NCBI GenBank assembly: GCA_964581355.1
Contig: CAZOOA010000005.1
Span: 11,487-75,486 of the forward strand
Reading direction: 5' to 3'
Source of the DNA: an uncultured Desulfovibrionaceae bacterium
GTDB taxonomy: Bacteria > Bacillota > Dethiobacteria > DTU022 > UBA8154
DNA length: 64,000 bases
Both the position numbers and the translations under genes were made by a program. Positions 697-33,420 of this stretch are shown here, piece by piece (within the stretch, counting starts at the first letter, position 1; each line of letters begins with the position of its first letter). The notes under the pieces were generated by a model. The model searched no databases, had not been told where the DNA came from, and was given only the letters and a program-made list of their open reading frames with translations.

Positions 697-1947
697 GTGT
701 ATAAAAGAGTGGTTGTCACTGGGATTGGGGCCGTTACCCCTATAGGAACAGGGAAAGATGCCTTTTGGGAAAATATGTATAAGGGAGAAAATGGTGTAAA
801 GGTGATCGACCATTTGCGGGACTTCCCAACCTATATGGCGGCAACAGTTGATGACTTCGAACCCCAGGATTTCATGGAAAAAAGAGATGTGAAAAAAATG
901 GACCGGTTTACCCATTTCGCTCAGGCAGCTGCTCAAATGGCTATTGATGATGCGAAAATGGATCTTACCAAAGAAGATAAGGAACGGGTTGGAGTTATTG
1001 TTGGTTCGGGTATCGGAGGGCTGGACACCATTGAAAAACAGTTTAAAATACTCCTGGATAAAGGGCCACGTAGGGTAAGCCCTTTTCTTGTCCCCATGCT
1101 GATTGCCAATATGGCTTCAGGTTATATTTCCATCGCTCACGGTTTGAGGGGGCCAAATACCACACTGGTTACTGCTTGTGCCAGCGGGTCCCATTCCATC
1201 GGTGAAGCGTACCGTATTTTACAACGCGGTGAAGCGGATATCATGATCGCTGGTGGGGCGGAAGCGCCAATAACATCCATCTCCTTTGCTGGTTTCTGTG
1301 CTGCCCGGGCCATGTCCACAAGAAATGATCAACCGGAAAAGGCCTCCAGGCCCTTTGATCTTCAAAGAGACGGTTTTGTCATGGGCGAAGGAGCTGGTGT
1401 TATTATCCTGGAAACGGAAGAACATGCTTTGAATAGAAATGCACCTATTTATGCAGAAATTGTTGGCTATGGAATGTCGGGGGATGCCCACCATGTTACA
1501 GCTCCTGACCCGGAAGGCCAAGGCGCCTATTTATGTATGCAGAGAGCCTTAAATGATGGCAATCTTTCACCCGATTCTGTTGATTATATCAACACTCATG
1601 GAACCTCTACAGAATATAACGACAAAATTGAGACATTGGCGATAAAACGTTTGTTTAAAGACCAAGCTTATAAAATGGCGCTAAGTTCTACAAAATCGAT
1701 GATTGGCCACCTTCTGGGGGCTGCCGGGGGTGTAGAGCTTGTTGCCACTTTGCTTAGCCTGCAAAAAGGGGTTGTCCTGCCTACGATTAACTATGAAGAA
1801 CCGGATCCGGAATGTGACCTGGACTATACACCGAATAAGCCCCGGGAAAGAGAAATCAATGTTGCCATGTCCAACTCCTTTGGTTTTGGAGGTACAAACG
1901 CCTGTCTTGTAGTCAAAAAATTTAATCAGGAGGCCAGCGGTGCCTGA
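697..1947 (+). CDS. fabF: 3-oxoacyl-[ACP] synthase II
   Basis: GTG start after a GGCGAGGTG RBS. Carries KAS motifs (active-site Cys context TACASG, HGTSTEYND, NSFGFGGTN). 416 aa. Confidence 0.95.
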   Translation: MYKRVVVTGIGAVTPIGTGKDAFWENMYKGENGVKVIDHLRDFPTYMAATVDDFEPQDFMEKRDVKKMDRFTHFAQAAAQMAIDDAKMDLTKEDKERVGVIVGSGIGGLDTIEKQFKILLDKGPRRVSPFLVPMLIANMASGYISIAHGLRGPNTTLVTACASGSHSIGEAYRILQRGEADIMIAGGAEAPITSISFAGFCAARAMSTRNDQPEKASRPFDLQRDGFVMGEGAGVIILETEEHALNRNAPIYAEIVGYGMSGDAHHVTAPDPEGQGAYLCMQRALNDGNLSPDSVDYINTHGTSTEYNDKIETLAIKRLFKDQAYKMALSSTKSMIGHLLGAAGGVELVATLLSLQKGVVLPTINYEEPDPECDLDYTPNKPREREINVAMSNSFGFGGTNACLVVKKFNQEASGA

Positions 1948-2644
1948 AACAGGAATAGATATACTGCTCAGTAACCTTAATTGGCGGGCTAAAAACAAAA
2001 TGTATTATGAGGAAGCGTTAACCCATTCTTCATATGCATATGAATCCGGTCTGGGCAAGAGTAATGAGCGCCTGGAGTTTTTAGGCGATGCGGTCCTTGA
2101 GCTTGTAATTTCGGAATACTTATTTAAGAGTTTTCCAGACTACCCCGAAGGAAAGTTAACACAAATAAGGCACAGGGTGGTGAACGAAGCATCCCTGGCA
2201 GAAATTGCCAGGGAGATCAACCTGGGCTCTTTCATGAGGCTGGGTAAAGGGGAATTATTAAGTGGCGGTCCTGAAAAAAATTCTTTACTGGCGGATGCAT
2301 TGGAAGCATTGATTGGAGCTCTTTTTGTTGACCTGGGTTATAACGAGTCAAGAAAACTGCTCCTGGCGCTATTCCGCCAGACCCTGGATGATGTGGTTCA
2401 AGGAATTCTTCCTCTTTCCGATTACAAGACCCTGCTGCAGGAGTTATGCCAGTCCAGTCTTGGAAAAGTGCCTTTTTACCGCATTGCTTCCGAATCAGGC
2501 CCTCCTCATGACCGGAACTTTGAAGCGGAAGTCCTTCTGGATAAGCAGGTGATTGGCCGGGGACGGGGAAAGAGTAAAAAAGAGGCGGAGCAATCCGCTG
2601 CACAAAAAGCCTGCAAGTGGTTTCAAGAAAATGTTGCAAAATAA
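1940..2644 (+). CDS. rnc: ribonuclease III
   Basis: ERLEFLGDAVLELVISEYLF RNase III signature plus a C-terminal dsRBD (GRGRGKSKKEAEQSAAQKA). Overlaps the fabF stop. Confidence 0.9.
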   Translation: MPETGIDILLSNLNWRAKNKMYYEEALTHSSYAYESGLGKSNERLEFLGDAVLELVISEYLFKSFPDYPEGKLTQIRHRVVNEASLAEIAREINLGSFMRLGKGELLSGGPEKNSLLADALEALIGALFVDLGYNESRKLLLALFRQTLDDVVQGILPLSDYKTLLQELCQSSLGKVPFYRIASESGPPHDRNFEAEVLLDKQVIGRGRGKSKKEAEQSAAQKACKWFQENVAK

Positions 2645-2650
2645 GAAAGA

Positions 2651-2680
2651 AACCTGCTGGGAACGGCAGGTTACTTTTTG
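2651..2680 (+). terminator. intrinsic terminator after rnc
   Basis: AACCTGC-tgggaacg-GCAGGTT stem followed by ACTTTTTGG. Confidence 0.55.
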
Positions 2681-2727
2681 GAACTTGTTGAAAATCGGGC
2701 AGATATTGCTTTTCGGATGGTGAAAAC

Positions 2728-5700
2728 ATGCTATTGAAGCGTATTGACATTATGGGTTTTAAATCATTCCCGGAAAAAACAGAAATAAAATTGTCACCCG
2801 GGATTACTGTGATTATCGGTCCCAACGGTTGCGGCAAAAGCAACCTGGTGGATTCCATCCGTTGGGTATTGGGTGAGCAGAGCGTCAAACTGATGCGTGG
2901 GAATAAAATGGAAGAGTTGATTTTCAGTGGGACTGCTACAAGAAAACCCCTTAATTTTGCCGATGTTTCTGTTGTCTTTGAGGAAGTAGACAAGTTTCTG
3001 CCCGTAGAATACCAGGAAATTTCCGTTTCTCGCCGCATGTATCGCTCCGGTGAAGGGGAGTACCATCTGAATAAAAAACCATGCCGGTTGAAAGATATCA
3101 ATGAACTGTTTTTAGATACGGGAATTGGCATGGAGACGTATTCCCTCATCGGGCAGGGCCGGGTGGAGCAGTTGATCAATGCCCGGCCTGAAGAACACAG
3201 GGAGCTATTTGAAGAAGCGGCGAAAATACATAAATATAAACAAAGAAAAAAAGAAGCCCGGGGCAAGTTGGATGAGATGCACAGAAACTTGATCCGGGTG
3301 GATGACCTGCTTGCCGAATACCAGGGGCAGACAGAGCACCTTTCAGAGGAAGCGGATCGTGCCAGGGAATATAAACAGTTACAGGATCAATGCAAGTTTT
3401 TAGACAAGCAGATCTTGCTTAAACAGTGGGCTGAAAATAAAGCTGCCTATGATAAAATGGAAGCAGAAGTCAACCGGATCAATCATACTCTTCAGGAAAA
3501 GTCAGCAGCAATTCACCAGCTCACGGAAAAGATGAAACAATCTGAACTCCAGGAGCTAGATGCTTTAAACCAACTGGAAGAGGCCAAAAGGCATTACCAG
3601 GAGCAAAAGGAAACTCTTGATTCCCTGCAAAACCAGGTTTACCTGGCGAGGCAGCAGATCAAATACAATATGGAAAAAATCACTTATAAAGAAGAATCAT
3701 ACCAGGAAGTCCAGGGCCGGATTAACGGATTAAATGAGACCATCCAAAACAATCAGCAGGATTTAAATACGGTCCAGGAAGAGCAGAAACAGTTGGGGGA
3801 GCAGGCTTCTAAATTAACGGAACGGCTGAACAATATGCAGCGGGGGCAAAGTTTGGCCCAGGTGGAATCTTTGCGTGAATCCCTGGCCGGAGAAAATCAA
3901 AAAATGGCGGTTTTGCAGCAAAAGCTGCAAGATTATGAGCAGCGGCTGGAAGAAATCCAGCAGCAAAAACAGGAAACAGAAAAGTTAATTCATGCTCAAG
4001 AACAAGTAGCAAAAGAGCTGGCAGAAAAAAAGGGGCAAAGTTTGGAGCAGTTGCAGAAACTGGAACAGGATAAATTCGAACTTCAAACAAGACAAGAACA
4101 GCTGGAAAGCCAGTGGAATAAAAACAATGCGGTCTTGAGCAAAAAAAGGGAATTGCTAAGGAACCTTGGCCGGGAAATAGAAAAAAAGAAAGGTCGCTTC
4201 AGGTTCTTAAAGGAAAGTGAAGAGGGTTTCAGTTTTTTTTCAGATGGTGTAAAGGCGGTAATGCAGTGGGCCTCCAGCAACTCCCTGCAGGAAGGTATTT
4301 ATGGACCTTTTATTCAGTTAATTCAAGTTTCACCTCAATATGAAAAAGCAATAGAAGTAGCCTTGGGTGCCTCGACACAATTTATTGTTGTCGCTGATGA
4401 AGGGTATGCACGGCGTGCCATTGAACACTTGAAAATGAAGCAGGCAGGAAAAGCGACATTTTTGCCCCTGGATATGCTTAAAGTTTCAAGAAGGGAAATT
4501 CCTTCCCGGTCAATGGAAGGCCTGGTTGATCGGGCCAGCCAGCTGGTTCAGACAGCTTCTCAATACAAAAAGGCTGTTGATTACCTGTTAGGTGGAACTT
4601 TGATCGCAAAAAATCTTGAATGTGCAGTGAACATGGCTAAAGGCCTGAGCGGCTGGAGGGTTGTCACCCTGGACGGCGAAATGATCACACCAGGAGGGGC
4701 AATTTCTGGAGGCGTTTCCAGCCGGCAAAGTGCTGGGTTCCTGGCCAGCAAAAGGGAGCGTCAAAACCTGGAGCAGGAGTTAAACAAGCTGGACCAGCGA
4801 GAAAAAAATGAACTGAAGCAAGTTCAGGAATTGGAAGGCTCGATCAAAGAAGTAGAGTCGAGCCTGAATATAGTAAAACAGGAAATTGCAGACCTGGCAG
4901 GAAAAGAAAACAACATCCACTATAACCTGGAACATCTTGAGGCGGATTTGAAACGAGAGACTGAAGCGGTGGATGCTGCCCGTAAAGATAAAGAGAACCT
5001 GGAGCAGCGCTGGGATCACCTGGTAAAGGAAAAAGCAGCCCGGGAAGAAGAGCTTGCTGCCTGTGATAGTTCAATCGATTCCTTTAAGGAACAGATCAAG
5101 GAATTAAATCAAAAAGTTAAGCGTGAGGATGAAGAATACAAGAAGACGGAGGAAGAACGGGTTGAAGTAAGAGTGCGTTTCTCCGCCTTCCAGGAGAAAG
5201 AGAGCTCACTGCAGGATATGCTCCAAAAACAAAAGCAGGAAAAAGAACGCCTGGCTGAACTCTCCAATTCACTGAAACAAGAAAAACGCGGTCTGGAAGA
5301 AGAACTGGAAAAAAATCAGACCCGGGAACAATCTCTATTACACCAATTGGAACAGGAAAAGGAGAAAAGCGCCACCCTGGAAACAAAGGTGGAAGGGTTA
5401 GAGCAGTCGGCCAAAAAGCAGAAGTTGGAGAAGGAAGAAGCTCAATCCCTGTTAGAAAAGGAAAAAAGATCACTGGAACGGTTTCAAAAGCGTTCTCAGA
5501 GTCTGGAGATCGAGATTGTCCGTTACAGGGAAGCTATCCGTTACTTAACCGAGCAACTACTGGAAAAATACCGGGTCGATCCAAGAAAGGATTTATCTCA
5601 GAAACAAGAAGCTGAAATATCCCGGGCGGAATTAGAGAAGGAAAAACAGAAACTGGAAAATGAAATGGATGCCATGGGAGAGGTGGATCTTAGTGTTATC

Positions 5701-14651: not shown

Positions 14652-16187
14652 ATGCTTTCAAAAGTGACAACCTGCACTCTGATAGGCGTGGAAGGGCATG
14701 AGGTTTTTGTGGAGACGGATATTGCCAACGGCCTGCCCAATTTTAACCTGGTTGGTTTGGCGGCTCCTTCCATTAAAGAAGCCAGGGAGCGGGTACGGGC
14801 AGCAATTAAAAATAGCGGGTTTGAATTTCCAGCCAAAAGAATTACAGTGAACCTGGCCCCGGCTGATTTAAAAAAGGATGGCTCATCTTTTGACCTGGCT
14901 ATCGCAGCGGGTATCCTGGCTGCAACGGGACAGGTTCCGCTAACCTCCCTGCAGGGTAAAATCTTTGCCGGTGAACTGTCCCTTGATGGGCAGTTGCGCA
15001 ACATCCCCGGTGTTCTTGCCATGGCATTGTCTTTAAAAGAAAACCAGGGCCAGGGGAACTCCTATTTTTTTGTCCCCAGGGACAATGCCCCGGAAGCCTC
15101 CATTGTTAAAGGAGCACAAGCTGTTGGGGTGTCCAGCTTAAGGGAGCTGGCAGGTCTATTAAGGGGTGAAACTGAATTATCAGCATCTTCGGGGCGAATG
15201 GATCCCCCGGATGCCTCAGCAGCAGAACAGATGCAGGTAGACTTTCAGGAAGTAAAAGGACATCTTACTGTAAAAAGGGCTTTGGAAATAGCTGCAGCCG
15301 GGGGACACAACGTTCTGCTGACCGGGCCTCCCGGGACCGGAAAAACAATGCTGGCAAGAAGAATCCCTACCATCCTCCCGGCCATGACCATGGATGAATG
15401 CTTGGAAGTCACCCGGATCCACAGTGTAGCCGGGCTGGTCAAACCCCAACAACCCCTGCTAACTAGCAGGCCATTTCGCTCTCCTCACCATTCGGCTACT
15501 GCAGCCAGTATCCTTGGAGGCGGTCGAATTCCAAAACCGGGAGAAGTGAGCCTGGCCCACCGGGGCGTATTATTCCTGGATGAATTTCCTGAATACCCCA
15601 GGGAAGTATTGGAAGGGCTCCGGCAGCCCCTGGAGGACGGTCAGGTACATATTGCCCGCTCTGAGCTAACAGTTTCTTTCCCCTGCCAGTTTATGCTGGT
15701 GGCATCGAGCAACCCGTGTTACTGCGGTTTTTTCGGGCATCCCAGAAAAGCTTGCAGCTGTTCCGAATCCCAACTGCGGCGCTATCAGCTCAAATCTTCC
15801 GGGCCTCTCATGGACCGGATTGATCTGCACATCGAAGTTCCTCCCATGGAATACAGCGAACTGGAGCAGGCTGGAGAAGGTGAAAGCTCTGCTGCCATCA
15901 GGACCAGGGTTGAACAGGCGCGAGAGAAACAACGCGAAAGGTTTAGACATATCCAGGTTGACTGCAACGCTAATATTTCCCACCGTTACCTGAAACAACA
16001 CTGCTGGTTAAGCGTTGAAGCCCAGGCCATTCTGCGCCGGGCCTTCGATTCACTATCTCTGTCCATGAGGGCTCATGACCGGGTAATTAAAGTGGCCCAG
16101 ACTATTGCCGATTTGGAGTCAGAAAAAGAGATCACCGCCTCACACATTGCAGAGGCGATTCAATACCGAAATATGGATAGAAATTAA
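14652..16187 (+). CDS. comM: YifB/ComM-family Mg-chelatase-like AAA+ ATPase
   Basis: N-terminal Lon-like domain, Walker A LLTGPPGTGKTM, VLFLDEFPE, and a C-terminal Mg-chelatase ChlI-like region. 511 aa. Confidence 0.9.
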   Translation: MLSKVTTCTLIGVEGHEVFVETDIANGLPNFNLVGLAAPSIKEARERVRAAIKNSGFEFPAKRITVNLAPADLKKDGSSFDLAIAAGILAATGQVPLTSLQGKIFAGELSLDGQLRNIPGVLAMALSLKENQGQGNSYFFVPRDNAPEASIVKGAQAVGVSSLRELAGLLRGETELSASSGRMDPPDASAAEQMQVDFQEVKGHLTVKRALEIAAAGGHNVLLTGPPGTGKTMLARRIPTILPAMTMDECLEVTRIHSVAGLVKPQQPLLTSRPFRSPHHSATAASILGGGRIPKPGEVSLAHRGVLFLDEFPEYPREVLEGLRQPLEDGQVHIARSELTVSFPCQFMLVASSNPCYCGFFGHPRKACSCSESQLRRYQLKSSGPLMDRIDLHIEVPPMEYSELEQAGEGESSAAIRTRVEQAREKQRERFRHIQVDCNANISHRYLKQHCWLSVEAQAILRRAFDSLSLSMRAHDRVIKVAQTIADLESEKEITASHIAEAIQYRNMDRN

Positions 16188-16249
16188 GAAATTAATGGGG
16201 TCAGGGCTTGAAATATAAGTTTAGGATGAAAAACCGTGTCTTGCTGCTG

Positions 16250-16640
16250 TCGTCCGGGCGACTGGGTAACCCTGTGGAAGGCGCTAAGGTTCCCTCAGGG
16301 TCCCCGGGCGGCCTTCCCGGTTTAACTCCCGTCCGGGTCGTTCCCGGCGGCCGACGTCCTGTCGGCCGGGACCGCCCGAGAACCTTCGGTCACCAAGCGC
16401 CTTTGGCCACAGAGACCAACGTCGCCGGACAAATGCGCCATCTCCCCGGTTAAGAGGGCGGAGTGTTGAAAACCAGCCCTTCGGCCGCAAGCAAGGTTTT
16501 TCATCTCCTGTTGTGGCCCGTAAGGGACGTGGCGGTCAGCATGAAAATGACAGCGTTGGCGCATGCCGGACCAGCCGGTTTAGGTTTGCTGCAGGCAATT
16601 TAAGCTGCCCTACTCGGTCCTCCGGGGATCGTTTCCCGGT
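16250..16640. other. ~400-bp GC-rich (>60% GC vs ~45% background) highly self-complementary non-coding element of unknown class; candidate large structured RNA
   Basis: No credible ORF is present (only overlapping low-complexity frames). Nested long-range helices were seen, for example AAGGCGCT(16278-85)/AGCGCCTT(16396-403), AAGGTTC(16286-92)/GAACCTT(16380-86), GGCCGAC-gtcct-GTCGGCC(16349-67), GGCCACA(16405-11)/TGTGGCC(16512-18), ATGCGCC(16433-39)/GGCGCAT(16558-64). Strand not determined. Confidence 0.4.
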
Positions 16641-16675
16641 ATGAAGACAAACAGTGATTTCAAGATCAGCCCCCA

Positions 16676-16707
16676 TTTTTGAACATTTTTGAACATTTTT
16701 GAAAAAG
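16676..16707. repeat. tandem direct repeat TTGAACATTTT, 2.5 copies
   Basis: tttttGAACATTTTTGAACATTTTTGAAAAAg sits about 180 bp upstream of the MCP-like gene. Confidence 0.5.
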
Positions 16708-16882
16708 AAAGAGGAATTTTATATGGCTTATCGAATTAAAAGAAAACGCTGACCTGTAAAAATAAAAGGCAGCTATGTTTTTACCATCAAAAGTCAGTAT
16801 ATTTTAACATGCTTGAATTATCTATTAGAGGGGGGAGACAAGCCGGGGAAGAATTGTTAATATCTTTCCGGGTGGTTTAATT

Positions 16883-17734
16883 ATGGAAAAGGTTAATAAT
16901 AACAGTAATGACGCCCAAGGGAATATCATGGACACTTTGATTTCGGTAGCGCCAGTGATCCAACAGGCGATTTTCCTGGACAATGTTATAGTTATTACAG
17001 ATCGGGAAAAGTATATTCACATACTTAGTGGAAAAGAGATCAATCTTGACGATCTGGTGGGTAAATTTTTAGATGAAAAGGAAATTATGTACAGGGCGGT
17101 CAACCAGGGAAAGATCATCACTGCTGAAGTTCCCAAAAAATATTATGGCACTCCTTTTAAAGCTTCAGGTGTTCCTATCAGAGACCAGAACAACCAGATT
17201 GTCGGCGGCTTTGGTATTGGCATTTCCCTGGTGAGCCAGAAAATATTGACAGAAACAACGAATACTTTTTTATCAACGACTCAGCAGGTTACGGCTACAG
17301 CCCAAGAACTGGCCGGTACAGCCGAAGAGTTGGCAGGTGAGATGGAAACTCTTAGTTCTCTGGAAGGAGAAGTTATGTCCCATGTCAACAAAACAGATAC
17401 AATTTTGGCTTTAATTAATAAAGTCGCTTCCAATTCCAACCTTTTAGGTTTAAACGCCTCCATTGAAGCGGCCAGGGCGGGGGAACACGGCAGGGGGTTC
17501 AATGTGGTGGCCGAAGAAATTCGCAAAATGGCCGACAGCAGTACTCAATCGGTTGGGGAAATTCAAGAAATACTGGATGCTACAAAAGAGAAAGTGACCA
17601 AAATGGCTGAAGAAATTGAAAAGATAAAGGAAATAAGCCAGCATCAGGCAGCAGCAACGGAAGAGATCTCTGCTTCCATGCAGGAAATGGCCAGTTCCGT
17701 TGATAAGCTTGAACAAGTTTCCCAAATTCTATAA
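16883..17734 (+). CDS. soluble methyl-accepting chemotaxis protein-like signalling protein (uncharacterised N-terminal domain plus a short MCP signalling domain)
   Basis: [31 protein letters not shown] is the MCP highly conserved domain. No TM segments and no adjacent che genes. Confidence 0.8.
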
Positions 17735-17911
17735 TTGTGTCGCTTAAATTGGGCCAAACATCTTTCAGCCGTCCTTTGGCCCCACCGAGTACAGGCGGCA
17801 AGGCCTCAGCCCTGGAAAACTGCTAATGTCAATCCTCGCAGTTTGAGGATCTTTACTGCTGTACAGGTTTCGGTTAAATATCACATCTTATATTAAGGAG
17901 AGGAACATTTC

Positions 17912-18322
17912 ATGGACTATTGCCAGGAGATCATGGAAAAATACAGTAAAGATCTTTTTCCCCAAAGCCTGGGTATTGAAATAATATACCTTTCCCCTGG
18001 AAGCTGCCAGGTGCAAATGGTAGTCAAAGATGAAATGACCAATTTTCATCAAATTACCCATGGAGGTGCCCTTTTCACCCTGGCGGATACGGCCTTTGGA
18101 TTAGCCTCCAACTCCAGGGGGCCTGCCGTTGCCCTGCAGGTCAGCGTCAACTTTATGACTTCTTCCAGGGGAGGGCAGACCCTGGTGGCCACCGCCAGGG
18201 AAGAGCACCTGACGAGATCAACAGGGATTTATAATGTGGATGTGCAAGATGAAAGGGGGGAGGCTATTATGCTTTTTCGTGGTGTGGTTTATAGGTTCAA
18301 GGGAAAAAATAATATATTTTGA
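17912..18322 (+). CDS. PaaI/hotdog-fold thioesterase
   Basis: HGGALFTLADTAFGLA is a PaaI-family hotdog motif. 136 aa. Confidence 0.8.
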   Translation: MDYCQEIMEKYSKDLFPQSLGIEIIYLSPGSCQVQMVVKDEMTNFHQITHGGALFTLADTAFGLASNSRGPAVALQVSVNFMTSSRGGQTLVATAREEHLTRSTGIYNVDVQDERGEAIMLFRGVVYRFKGKNNIF

Positions 18323-33218: not shown

Positions 33219-33420
33219 GGCGTGGGCGGGGACACGAACCTGCACCAGAAGCCATTAGTTTTGTTTGTATCTGCCTTCAATGAACAAACTAGTTTTAACT
33301 TAAGTGATTGCTCTGCCTGGAGCCGTCAAAGGACCGGGACAGCAGGTACATCAGCTAAGGATTTTTATGTGCCTTCCTGTTTTCCTGGAAGGCATAATTT
33401 ATTTTAAGGCCTGGTGAGCG

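Follow-up and report, generated by a model that had tools for sequence, protein, structure and literature searches.

The window analyzed here, a stretch of 64,000 nucleotides (64 kb) from contig CAZOOA010000005.1 of assembly GCA_964581355.1 (recorded as an uncultured Desulfovibrionaceae bacterium and placed in the Dethiobacteria of the Bacillota by GTDB), contains a GC-rich intergenic element directly downstream of comM, which a sequence-only reading had located at 16250-16640. The feature is real, but the extent of about 400 bp given for it is too small: it spans 16192-16680, and its outermost arms are terminal repeats. The two arms and an interior of 425 nt, a non-coding GC-rich quasi-palindrome, make up an element of ~487 nt that is present in a single copy within the window. 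As had been noted, its GC content is well above background, the 400-nt stretches starting at 16251 (0.62) and 16201 (0.60) ranking first and second in the window, whose overall GC content is 0.47. The left arm starts 7 nt past the stop codon of the upstream gene, and the naming of this gene as yifB/comM is borne out by its domains. The termini of the element are copies of a repeat that elsewhere flanks genes for Y1 transposases of the kind associated with repetitive extragenic palindromic (REP) sequences, i.e. RAYT-type or TIRYT genes, and this lends support to what the sequence-only reading had offered as its fallback, a GC-rich mobile remnant. The locus has the following genes and features.

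14652-16187, + strand: comM/yifB, with Pfam domains Mg_chelatase, ChlI and Mg_chelatase_C
16192-16222, + strand: left terminal repeat, resembling a terminal inverted repeat (TIR) or REP, AATGGGGTCAGGGCTTGAAATATAAGTTT (nhmmer E 7e-9)
16224-16506, no strand assigned: interior domain 1, an imperfect palindrome of 283 nt that is GC-rich and forms a long rod, closed by GGATGAAAAACC/GGTTTTTCATCT
16221-16289, + strand: 69-nt segment with a relative elsewhere, left arm of domain 1
16507-16650, no strand assigned: interior domain 2, ~140 nt between domain 1 and the right repeat, with local hairpins
16651-16680, - strand: right terminal repeat, a degenerate inverted copy, minus-strand AATGGGGGCTGATCTTGAAATCACTGTTT (nhmmer E 7e-6)
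16674-16703, + strand: three tandem copies of CATTTTTGAA, which abut and overlap the right repeat at its outer end
16883-17734, + strand: gene for a soluble (YfmS-like) chemoreceptor with the signaling domain of methyl-accepting chemotaxis proteins (MCP; Pfam MCPsignal)

TIRYT genes are RAYT-like genes flanked by long TIRs that share the motif GGGGWSAS, and members of such TIR families are found singly, as dimers or in clusters (Di Nocera et al. 2013, PMC3733652). With an nhmmer profile that draws on 124 instances of the repeat from metagenomes, exactly two matches are obtained in the 64-kb window; these are inverted relative to each other and edge the GC-rich tract, the boundaries of which coincide exactly with the inner ends of both repeats. 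Over 29 nt, the left repeat is 93-96% identical to many metagenome loci, and its outer end, GGGGTCAG, conforms to the GGGGWSAS motif. The outer end of the right repeat, GGGGGCTG, is degenerate with respect to this motif and reads GGGGGCAG in strains L093 and L096. Both GGGG ends point outward, as they do in dimers and in TIR-flanked transposase units (TIRtrons), and the spacer between the arms is 428 nt. The left repeat paired with the right repeat forms the outermost helix, the outer inverted repeat (16194-16214/16657-16677) being 81% complementary over 21 nt; an inner inverted repeat (16225-16238/16492-16505) reaches 93% over 14 nt. The number of tandem CATTTTTGAA copies at the outer end of the right repeat is three in the window versus two in L093 and L096, which have a 10-nt deletion at 16694-16703. 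Two other identities for the ends were considered and rejected: what looks like the 5' end of a tmRNA on the minus strand (GGGGCTGAT) belongs to the terminal repeat and is accompanied by no tRNA-like 3' end, and the 38-bp inverted repeat of Tn3-type transposons shares only the GGGGTC start, with no 5-bp duplication.

A scan of metagenome contigs for AATGGGGNCNGNNCTTGAAAT, the consensus that the outer arms share, yielded at least 120 loci (L098-L217), and the repeat, which has the 29-nt family consensus AATGGGGTCAGGTCTTGAAATATCAGTTT, is very widespread in environmental metagenomes. The four free positions of the pattern are biased among the matches listed (T 81%, A 85%, G 77%, T 73%) and the conservation of the family extends ~9 nt past the pattern; the bias and the extended conservation together show that the matches belong to a genuine repeat family and do not arise by chance. 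In ~85 loci of other species that were obtained via comM or the MCP gene, the repeat profile found zero copies, and we found no paper in which the sequence of the repeat is printed. Further loci that exemplify the repeat are L161, L191, L206 and L214. In some loci (L206, L214 with the TIRYT gene next, L165 and L179), one or two extra short AATGGGGTCA units stand before the repeat.

In other contigs, the repeat is found in three layouts: (i) as a single copy, (ii) as a hairpin-forming dimer, and (iii) as inverted flanks of a gene for an IS200-like tyrosine transposase of the Y1 (HUH) type. Among the matches listed, 13 adjacent +/- pairs with a spacer of 5-23 nt are hairpin dimers (e.g. L144 3105-3177), and 13 units with a spacer of 855-969 nt each contain an open reading frame (ORF) of ~285 aa. 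Pairs with a spacer of 90-286 nt are intermediates, several of which keep the 3' end of this ORF. The ~285-aa ORFs start with MARPLRIEYPGAVYHVTSRG, have the Pfam domains Y1_Tnp and HTH_23, and score 84.1 bits against the NCBIfam model REP_Tyr_transpos (REP-associated tyrosine transposase), for which the cut-off is 80; an ORF with both domains is present in 26 of the 120 loci among the matches listed. C-termini with a helix-turn-helix (HTH) are a property of subclass 2.1 of TnpA_REP (Quentin et al. 2018, PMC6006769). By its sequence features, the combination of the repeat with a Y1/HTH transposase in other contigs is the published TIRYT or TIRtron arrangement with a TnpA_REP of subclass 2.1.

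The interior between the repeats folds into the two domains listed above, with the following predicted helices.

16240-44/16487-91, 16252-62/16421-30, 16272-85/16396-16412 and 16297-16311/16372-86: stacked helices of domain 1
16333-47 and 16348-68: apical hairpins of domain 1
16440-85: side branch of domain 1
16534-43/16562-72 and 16622-28/16633-39 (hairpin 16622-16639): examples of hairpins in domain 2

The nested long-range helices and the hairpins with CCGGG/CCCGG stems that had been described from the letters are therefore present, e.g. at 16272-16285/16396-16412, 16297-16311/16372-16386, 16333-16347 and 16622-16639. Relative to dinucleotide shuffles, the z-score of the minimum free energy (MFE) of the RNA is -3.5 (+ strand) and -5.4 (- strand) for 16200-16680 and -3.6 (+) and -5.1 (-) for the interior alone, and with DNA parameters the folding z-score is -5.5. 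The helices of domain 1 recur in the MFE folds of both strands and with DNA parameters, the MFE folds contain 12 (+) versus 14 (-) G-U pairs, and when the MFE structure of either strand is mirrored onto the opposite strand, >90% of its energy is kept. Given that folding is nearly equal on both strands and also strong with DNA parameters, the element behaves as a DNA palindrome. The CCGGG/CCCGG stems are no special signature of the element because these pentamers are enriched throughout the window: outside the element they occur at 2.6 and 2.25 per kb (whole window), roughly 3-4 times the ~0.7 per kb that base composition leads one to expect at 47% GC. The hairpin CCGGG-TCGTT-CCCGG, which was considered as a genome-wide REP-like hairpin, was rejected, as it is present solely inside the element.

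Among the loci compared, the 69-nt segment at 16221-16289 is the only part of the interior that has a relative. It is 90% identical to positions 4646-4714 (- strand) of contig L134 (blastn E 4e-20 to 4e-22), and the similarity stops exactly at both ends of the local alignment. In L134, the related sequence lies ~170-240 nt upstream of a gene for a 995-aa SLH-domain protein (ORF 1490-4477, - strand), i.e. in its 5' leader; this leader is not unusually structured (folding z-score -0.6) and has no Rfam match. L134 came into the comparison solely because the 29-nt repeat occurs elsewhere on this contig, and the match hints that L134 comes from a related organism and that the segment is a second sequence with dispersed copies. 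The segment could be a second dispersed repeat or, alternatively, a conserved leader module. Domain 2 has no similarity to TIRYT genes or to any other locus compared, and a profile of 11 TIRYT proteins gave zero matches in the six frames of the interior with filters off.

The element has no plausible ORF, in agreement with the sequence-only reading: the ORFs on both strands are short and overlapping (≤81 aa) with low-complexity translations, the two longest have zero matches in Pfam, and the concatenated six-frame translation of the element has zero matches at E≤10 among 5.8 billion proteins. This lack of protein matches counts against a decayed gene and also indicates that no similar spurious ORF was called by a gene caller elsewhere. 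Nothing resembling the element was found by distant blastn in plasmid and phage collections, the consensus repeat dimer has zero matches in the plasmid collection, and scans of viral contigs with three patterns gave chance matches only. Neither a sigma-70-like promoter nor an intrinsic terminator stands at the borders of the element, the counts of such matches not being above those in shuffles; a single terminator-like match (16565-16579) is internal, and the element itself yielded no promoter-like site.

The lack of a match to known RNA classes that had been noted by eye was borne out by the Rfam covariance models and by ARAGORN. Rfam 15 at gathering level over the whole 64-kb window gave nothing in the element, Rfam at E≤1 over 15900-17000 gave zero matches, and at E≤10 over 16185-16685 there were just two matches, both with E>2, which we judged to be noise; ARAGORN found no tRNA or tmRNA. 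The resemblance of a minus-strand stretch to domain IV of signal recognition particle (SRP) RNA, which had also been pointed out, is unsupported, as neither an SRP match nor one to another Rfam family was obtained. The sole gathering-level Rfam match in the window is a pan motif (RF01749) at 33261-33346 on the + strand (36.7 bits versus a gathering threshold of 36.2), which is immediately followed by a DUF2520 (Rossmann-like) gene and then by panB and panC. Given this expected panB/panC context, the motif is probably genuine.

The history of the locus can be read from its relatives. ComM has its nearest relatives, at 63-78% identity, in metagenome-assembled genomes (MAGs) of Dethiobacteria or 'Syntrophomonadaceae', and the genes upstream are found in the conserved order smc-ftsY-ffh-rpsP-...-rnhB-yraN-hyp-comM. 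In L085 and L086 (75% ComM identity), comM is followed by a 26-nt spacer and then by genes for a 4HBT thioesterase, an ACT protein and a DUF711 protein; in the window, this thioesterase-ACT-DUF711 gene set starts at 17912. The interval 16188-17911, which comprises the element and the MCP gene, is therefore lineage-specific. The element is also absent in L004 and L015, and neither blastn nor nhmmer detected similarity to it in 80 comM loci of GTDB species and five closer metagenome comM loci. A GC-rich tract after comM in L011 was considered as a homologue and proved to be a ferredoxin-like gene.

The MCP gene has no counterpart at the position between comM and the thioesterase gene in relatives. 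Its closest homologues (66-70% identity) are at other loci, including L090 and L089, where two tandem copies lie near cheW. The possibility that the element is a leader of the MCP gene was rejected, as the closest MCP homologues have unrelated upstream DNA and no element. The sequence comparison suggests that the MCP gene was gained or relocated together with the element, and the gene is possibly part of the same lineage-specific insertion.

Within the species, no difference separates the window from a 157-kb metagenome contig or from contigs of the MAG GCA_003555305.1 over the interval compared, 15800-18300. Other strains differ by five single-nucleotide polymorphisms (SNPs) in 16432-16680 versus one or two in ~1.4 kb of adjacent coding DNA. 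One variant, 16668 A>T, brings the right arm nearer to the consensus of the family, with a base pair regained, and so shows this arm to be decaying in the strain of the window; another, 16609 C>T, gives a G-U pair on the + strand. For an analysis of covariation, no full-length homologue was found in the comM and MCP loci, plasmids, phages or listed metagenome loci, and the material consists of strain variants only, six SNPs that are all unpaired or compatible with pairing and are too few to decide. The contigs of five other assemblies end within the element, in the range 16296-16563, at 16296, 16345/16408, 16432, 16491 and 16553 (L002, L003, L092, L093, L094 and L096), and in the NCBI MAG two contig ends within the element overlap by ~63 nt. 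These scattered breaks likely reflect loss of coverage over a cluster of hairpins with 70% GC, which they fit better than a repeat or inversion boundary; micro-heterogeneity is another candidate cause. All nine of the nine assemblies of the species are collinear with the window, and no inverted allele was seen.

In two relatives, L004 and L015, the spacer between comM and the thioesterase gene (L004:5581-5764 versus L015:1388-1571) contains a 144-nt segment in opposite orientations with nearly identical flanks. The segment is bounded by perfect 20-bp inverted repeats, GTTTCCCTGCTTGCCCTCAG and CTGAGGGCAAGCAGGGAAAC, and the two versions are ~93-95% identical after one of them is reverse-complemented as against ~77% in the same direction. 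From these alignments, a palindromic intergenic element appears to have undergone a natural DNA inversion. The segment is unrelated to the element in the window and has no copy of the 29-nt repeat.

High GC content and strong folding are the signature used by screens of GC-rich intergenic regions for new RNAs. The element has this signature (GC 15 points above the genome, folding z-scores down to -5), and the sequence-only reading had accordingly proposed an undescribed large structured non-coding RNA (ncRNA) akin to OLE, raiA, GOLLD and ROOL. In this explanation, the interior is a lineage-specific ncRNA gene, leader or 3' UTR element whose fold is kept by selection, and the flanking repeats are solo insertions that are there by chance. 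The six SNPs, which are unpaired or pair-compatible (16609 C>T as a G-U pair, 16668 restoring a pair), and the 69-nt piece in the L134 5' leader, which is oriented like the gene downstream of it, speak in its favor. In addition, +/- pairs of the repeat at 90-730 nt spacing are not much commoner than other orientations among the matches listed, so that independent insertion of repeats is possible. However, there is no Rfam match at E≤10 beyond noise and no homologue either at the syntenic site in relatives or upstream of their MCP homologues; the two strands fold nearly equally with no asymmetry in G-U pairs; no promoter-like or terminator-like site frames the element; its SNP density is above that of the flanking genes, i.e. 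it diverges fast between strains; the GC-rich tract stops exactly at the repeats; and the L134 relative corresponds to one arm of the rod only and is unstructured there. We therefore regard the proposal of an undescribed large ncRNA as unsupported and a structured ncRNA as an unlikely account of the element. A decayed fragment of a protein gene, or GC-rich DNA of other foreign origin, that came in by horizontal transfer and is unrelated to the repeats, with structure as an incidental property, would explain a composition foreign to the genome, the restriction of the segment to one lineage and the quick divergence between strains. Yet the six frames have no match at E≤10 in 5.8 billion proteins, the profile of the repeat-associated transposases matches nothing, the plasmid and phage collections contain no match, and a z-score of -5 is not expected for a random gene fragment; this origin appears quite improbable to us.

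The inverted-repeat flanks and the position upstream of the MCP gene bring to mind an invertible or recombinogenic segment, in which recombination between the outer or the inner inverted repeats would flip the interior and switch expression of the downstream MCP gene. The 144-nt segment that is inverted at the same spacer in L004 versus L015 and the breaks of contigs from five other assemblies inside the element are consistent with such a switch. In all assemblies that reach into the element or across it, however, the sequence is collinear with the window, and no inverted allele was seen among them; the repeats are imperfect (81% over 21 nt; 93% over 14 nt), the element contains no promoter-like site, and the contig breaks lie off the repeat boundaries, which makes an invertible switch highly improbable.

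The comparison with known systems leads closest to the TIRtrons (PMC3733652, PMC6006769). The left outer end GGGGTCAG fits GGGGWSAS, the same repeat flanks Y1_Tnp and HTH genes elsewhere, and singles and head-to-head dimers occur. The element differs from a TIRtron in that its repeats enclose 425 nt of unrelated palindromic DNA and not a transposase gene or a loop of 5-23 nt, that no TIRYT gene or other copy lies in the 64 kb, and that the right repeat is degenerate (GGGGGCTG).

A classic REP is a short palindrome with a GTAG tag, and a REPIN consists of two inverted REPs with a short spacer that form one hairpin. The element resembles REPINs and the REP-RAYT system (Bertels & Rainey 2011, PMC3116915; PMC3337134) in having two inverted short extragenic repeats that are capable of forming a hairpin, in its intergenic position just past a stop codon, and in that NCBIfam scoring places the associated protein among the REP-associated tyrosine transposases. 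In contrast to a REPIN, its spacer is 428 nt and not tens of nt, and its repeat unit, which has an internal stem of just 4 bp and lacks the GTAG tag, is not a clear palindrome; the element is thus outside the definition of a REPIN.

Similarly, the element shares with miniature inverted-repeat transposable elements (MITEs) and with the palindrome-associated transposable elements (PATEs) of the IS200/IS605 family that it is non-coding, has TIRs of ~20-30 nt and a robust hairpin, lies beside coding sequence and is present or absent according to lineage. It has the combination of non-coding DNA with TIRs of 15-30 bp that is typical of MITEs, with arms of 21-29 nt that are 81% complementary, but at ~487 nt it is larger than the usual 70-300 nt, shows no visible target-site duplication, is single-copy within 64 kb, and has an interior that is not a deletion derivative of a parent transposase gene. 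With OLE, GOLLD, ROOL, raiA and HEARO (IscB omega-RNA), it shares that it is long, GC-rich, strongly folding and intergenic in a lower-GC genome of Bacillota type; it differs from these RNAs in having no covariance-model match and no homologues in the loci compared, in the rod-like, palindromic and strand-symmetric nature of its fold, and in that no oapA, IscB, TnpB or similar protein gene is near. Finally, it is like an inverton in being flanked by inverted repeats upstream of a gene, and what appears to be a true inversion occurred at the same locus in L004/L015; it is unlike one in its imperfect repeats, in the lack of an internal promoter-like site and in its single orientation across the assemblies of the species, only one of the two orientations that define an inverton being found in the nine.

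Combining the homology of its ends, the link between the repeat and transposase genes, the outward geometry of the arms, the lack of coding potential, the restriction to one lineage and the variation between strains, we suggest that 16192-16680, with its unusual palindromic interior, is probably a repeat element of the TIRYT/RAYT kind that is bounded by TIRs and non-autonomous, or else a mobile remnant of this kind. The unit would have arrived or been assembled through a TIRYT encoded elsewhere in the genome, which would act in trans on hairpins of single-stranded DNA, the type of substrate also used by IS200/IS605 and RAYT enzymes. Another possibility is that the loop of a repeat dimer received a second palindromic repeat by insertion. 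In either case, the dense self-complementarity would be a property of palindromic DNA and not a selected RNA fold, and the effect on the host would be incidental. If transcripts of comM read through, the hairpin of ~490 nt could act as a 3' barrier (a stabilizer, an attenuator or an insulator) before the MCP gene.

Several points weigh against a TIR-bounded mobile element. No target-site duplication, i.e. no direct repeat beside the arms, was found, and the 64-kb window has no TIRYT gene and no repeat copies beyond the two arms. The interior is not derived from a transposase gene at the protein or nucleotide level and was never found between repeats in other loci among the matches listed, and ~487 nt exceeds the size of typical dimers or MITEs. 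The repeats could be independent solo insertions beside a pre-existing element, and the activity of TIRYTs has never been demonstrated experimentally (PMC3733652). Moreover, all six inter-strain SNPs are unpaired or keep or restore predicted pairing, which is weakly suggestive of structural constraint on the modeled fold; this sample is small and, as one of the alleles served to predict the fold, also biased.

A further idea by analogy unites the repeats with a structured RNA: the interior would be a new RNA cargo between TIRYT-type repeats, functioning as a regulator or guide of a Y1 system (like the omega or re-RNAs of IS200/IS605 and the bridge RNAs of IS110) or as a mobile cis-regulatory RNA, and the 69-nt piece in L134 would then be a conserved module. 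We consider this very unlikely. If transcription and conservation of the interior were demonstrated, it would represent the first case of an RNA cargo associated with RAYT/TIRYT elements, which is not what the present evidence leads us to expect.

In the search for new large ncRNAs, the standard bait consists of strongly folding intergenic regions whose GC content is high within a lower-GC genome. The analysis presented here corrects a tempting call of this kind, as the element is better explained as palindromic repeat DNA tied to a Y1 transposase family with a domesticated appearance. The element is an atypical addition to a kind of sequence already described, the TIR repeats of Y1/TIRYT transposases. 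It brings to light a GGGGWSAS-type TIR family with the consensus AATGGGGTCAGGTCTTGAAATATCAGTTT that is abundant across many environmental metagenomes, and it indicates that this family reaches into a Dethiobacteria-like Bacillota genome and that its repeats can bracket unrelated DNA.

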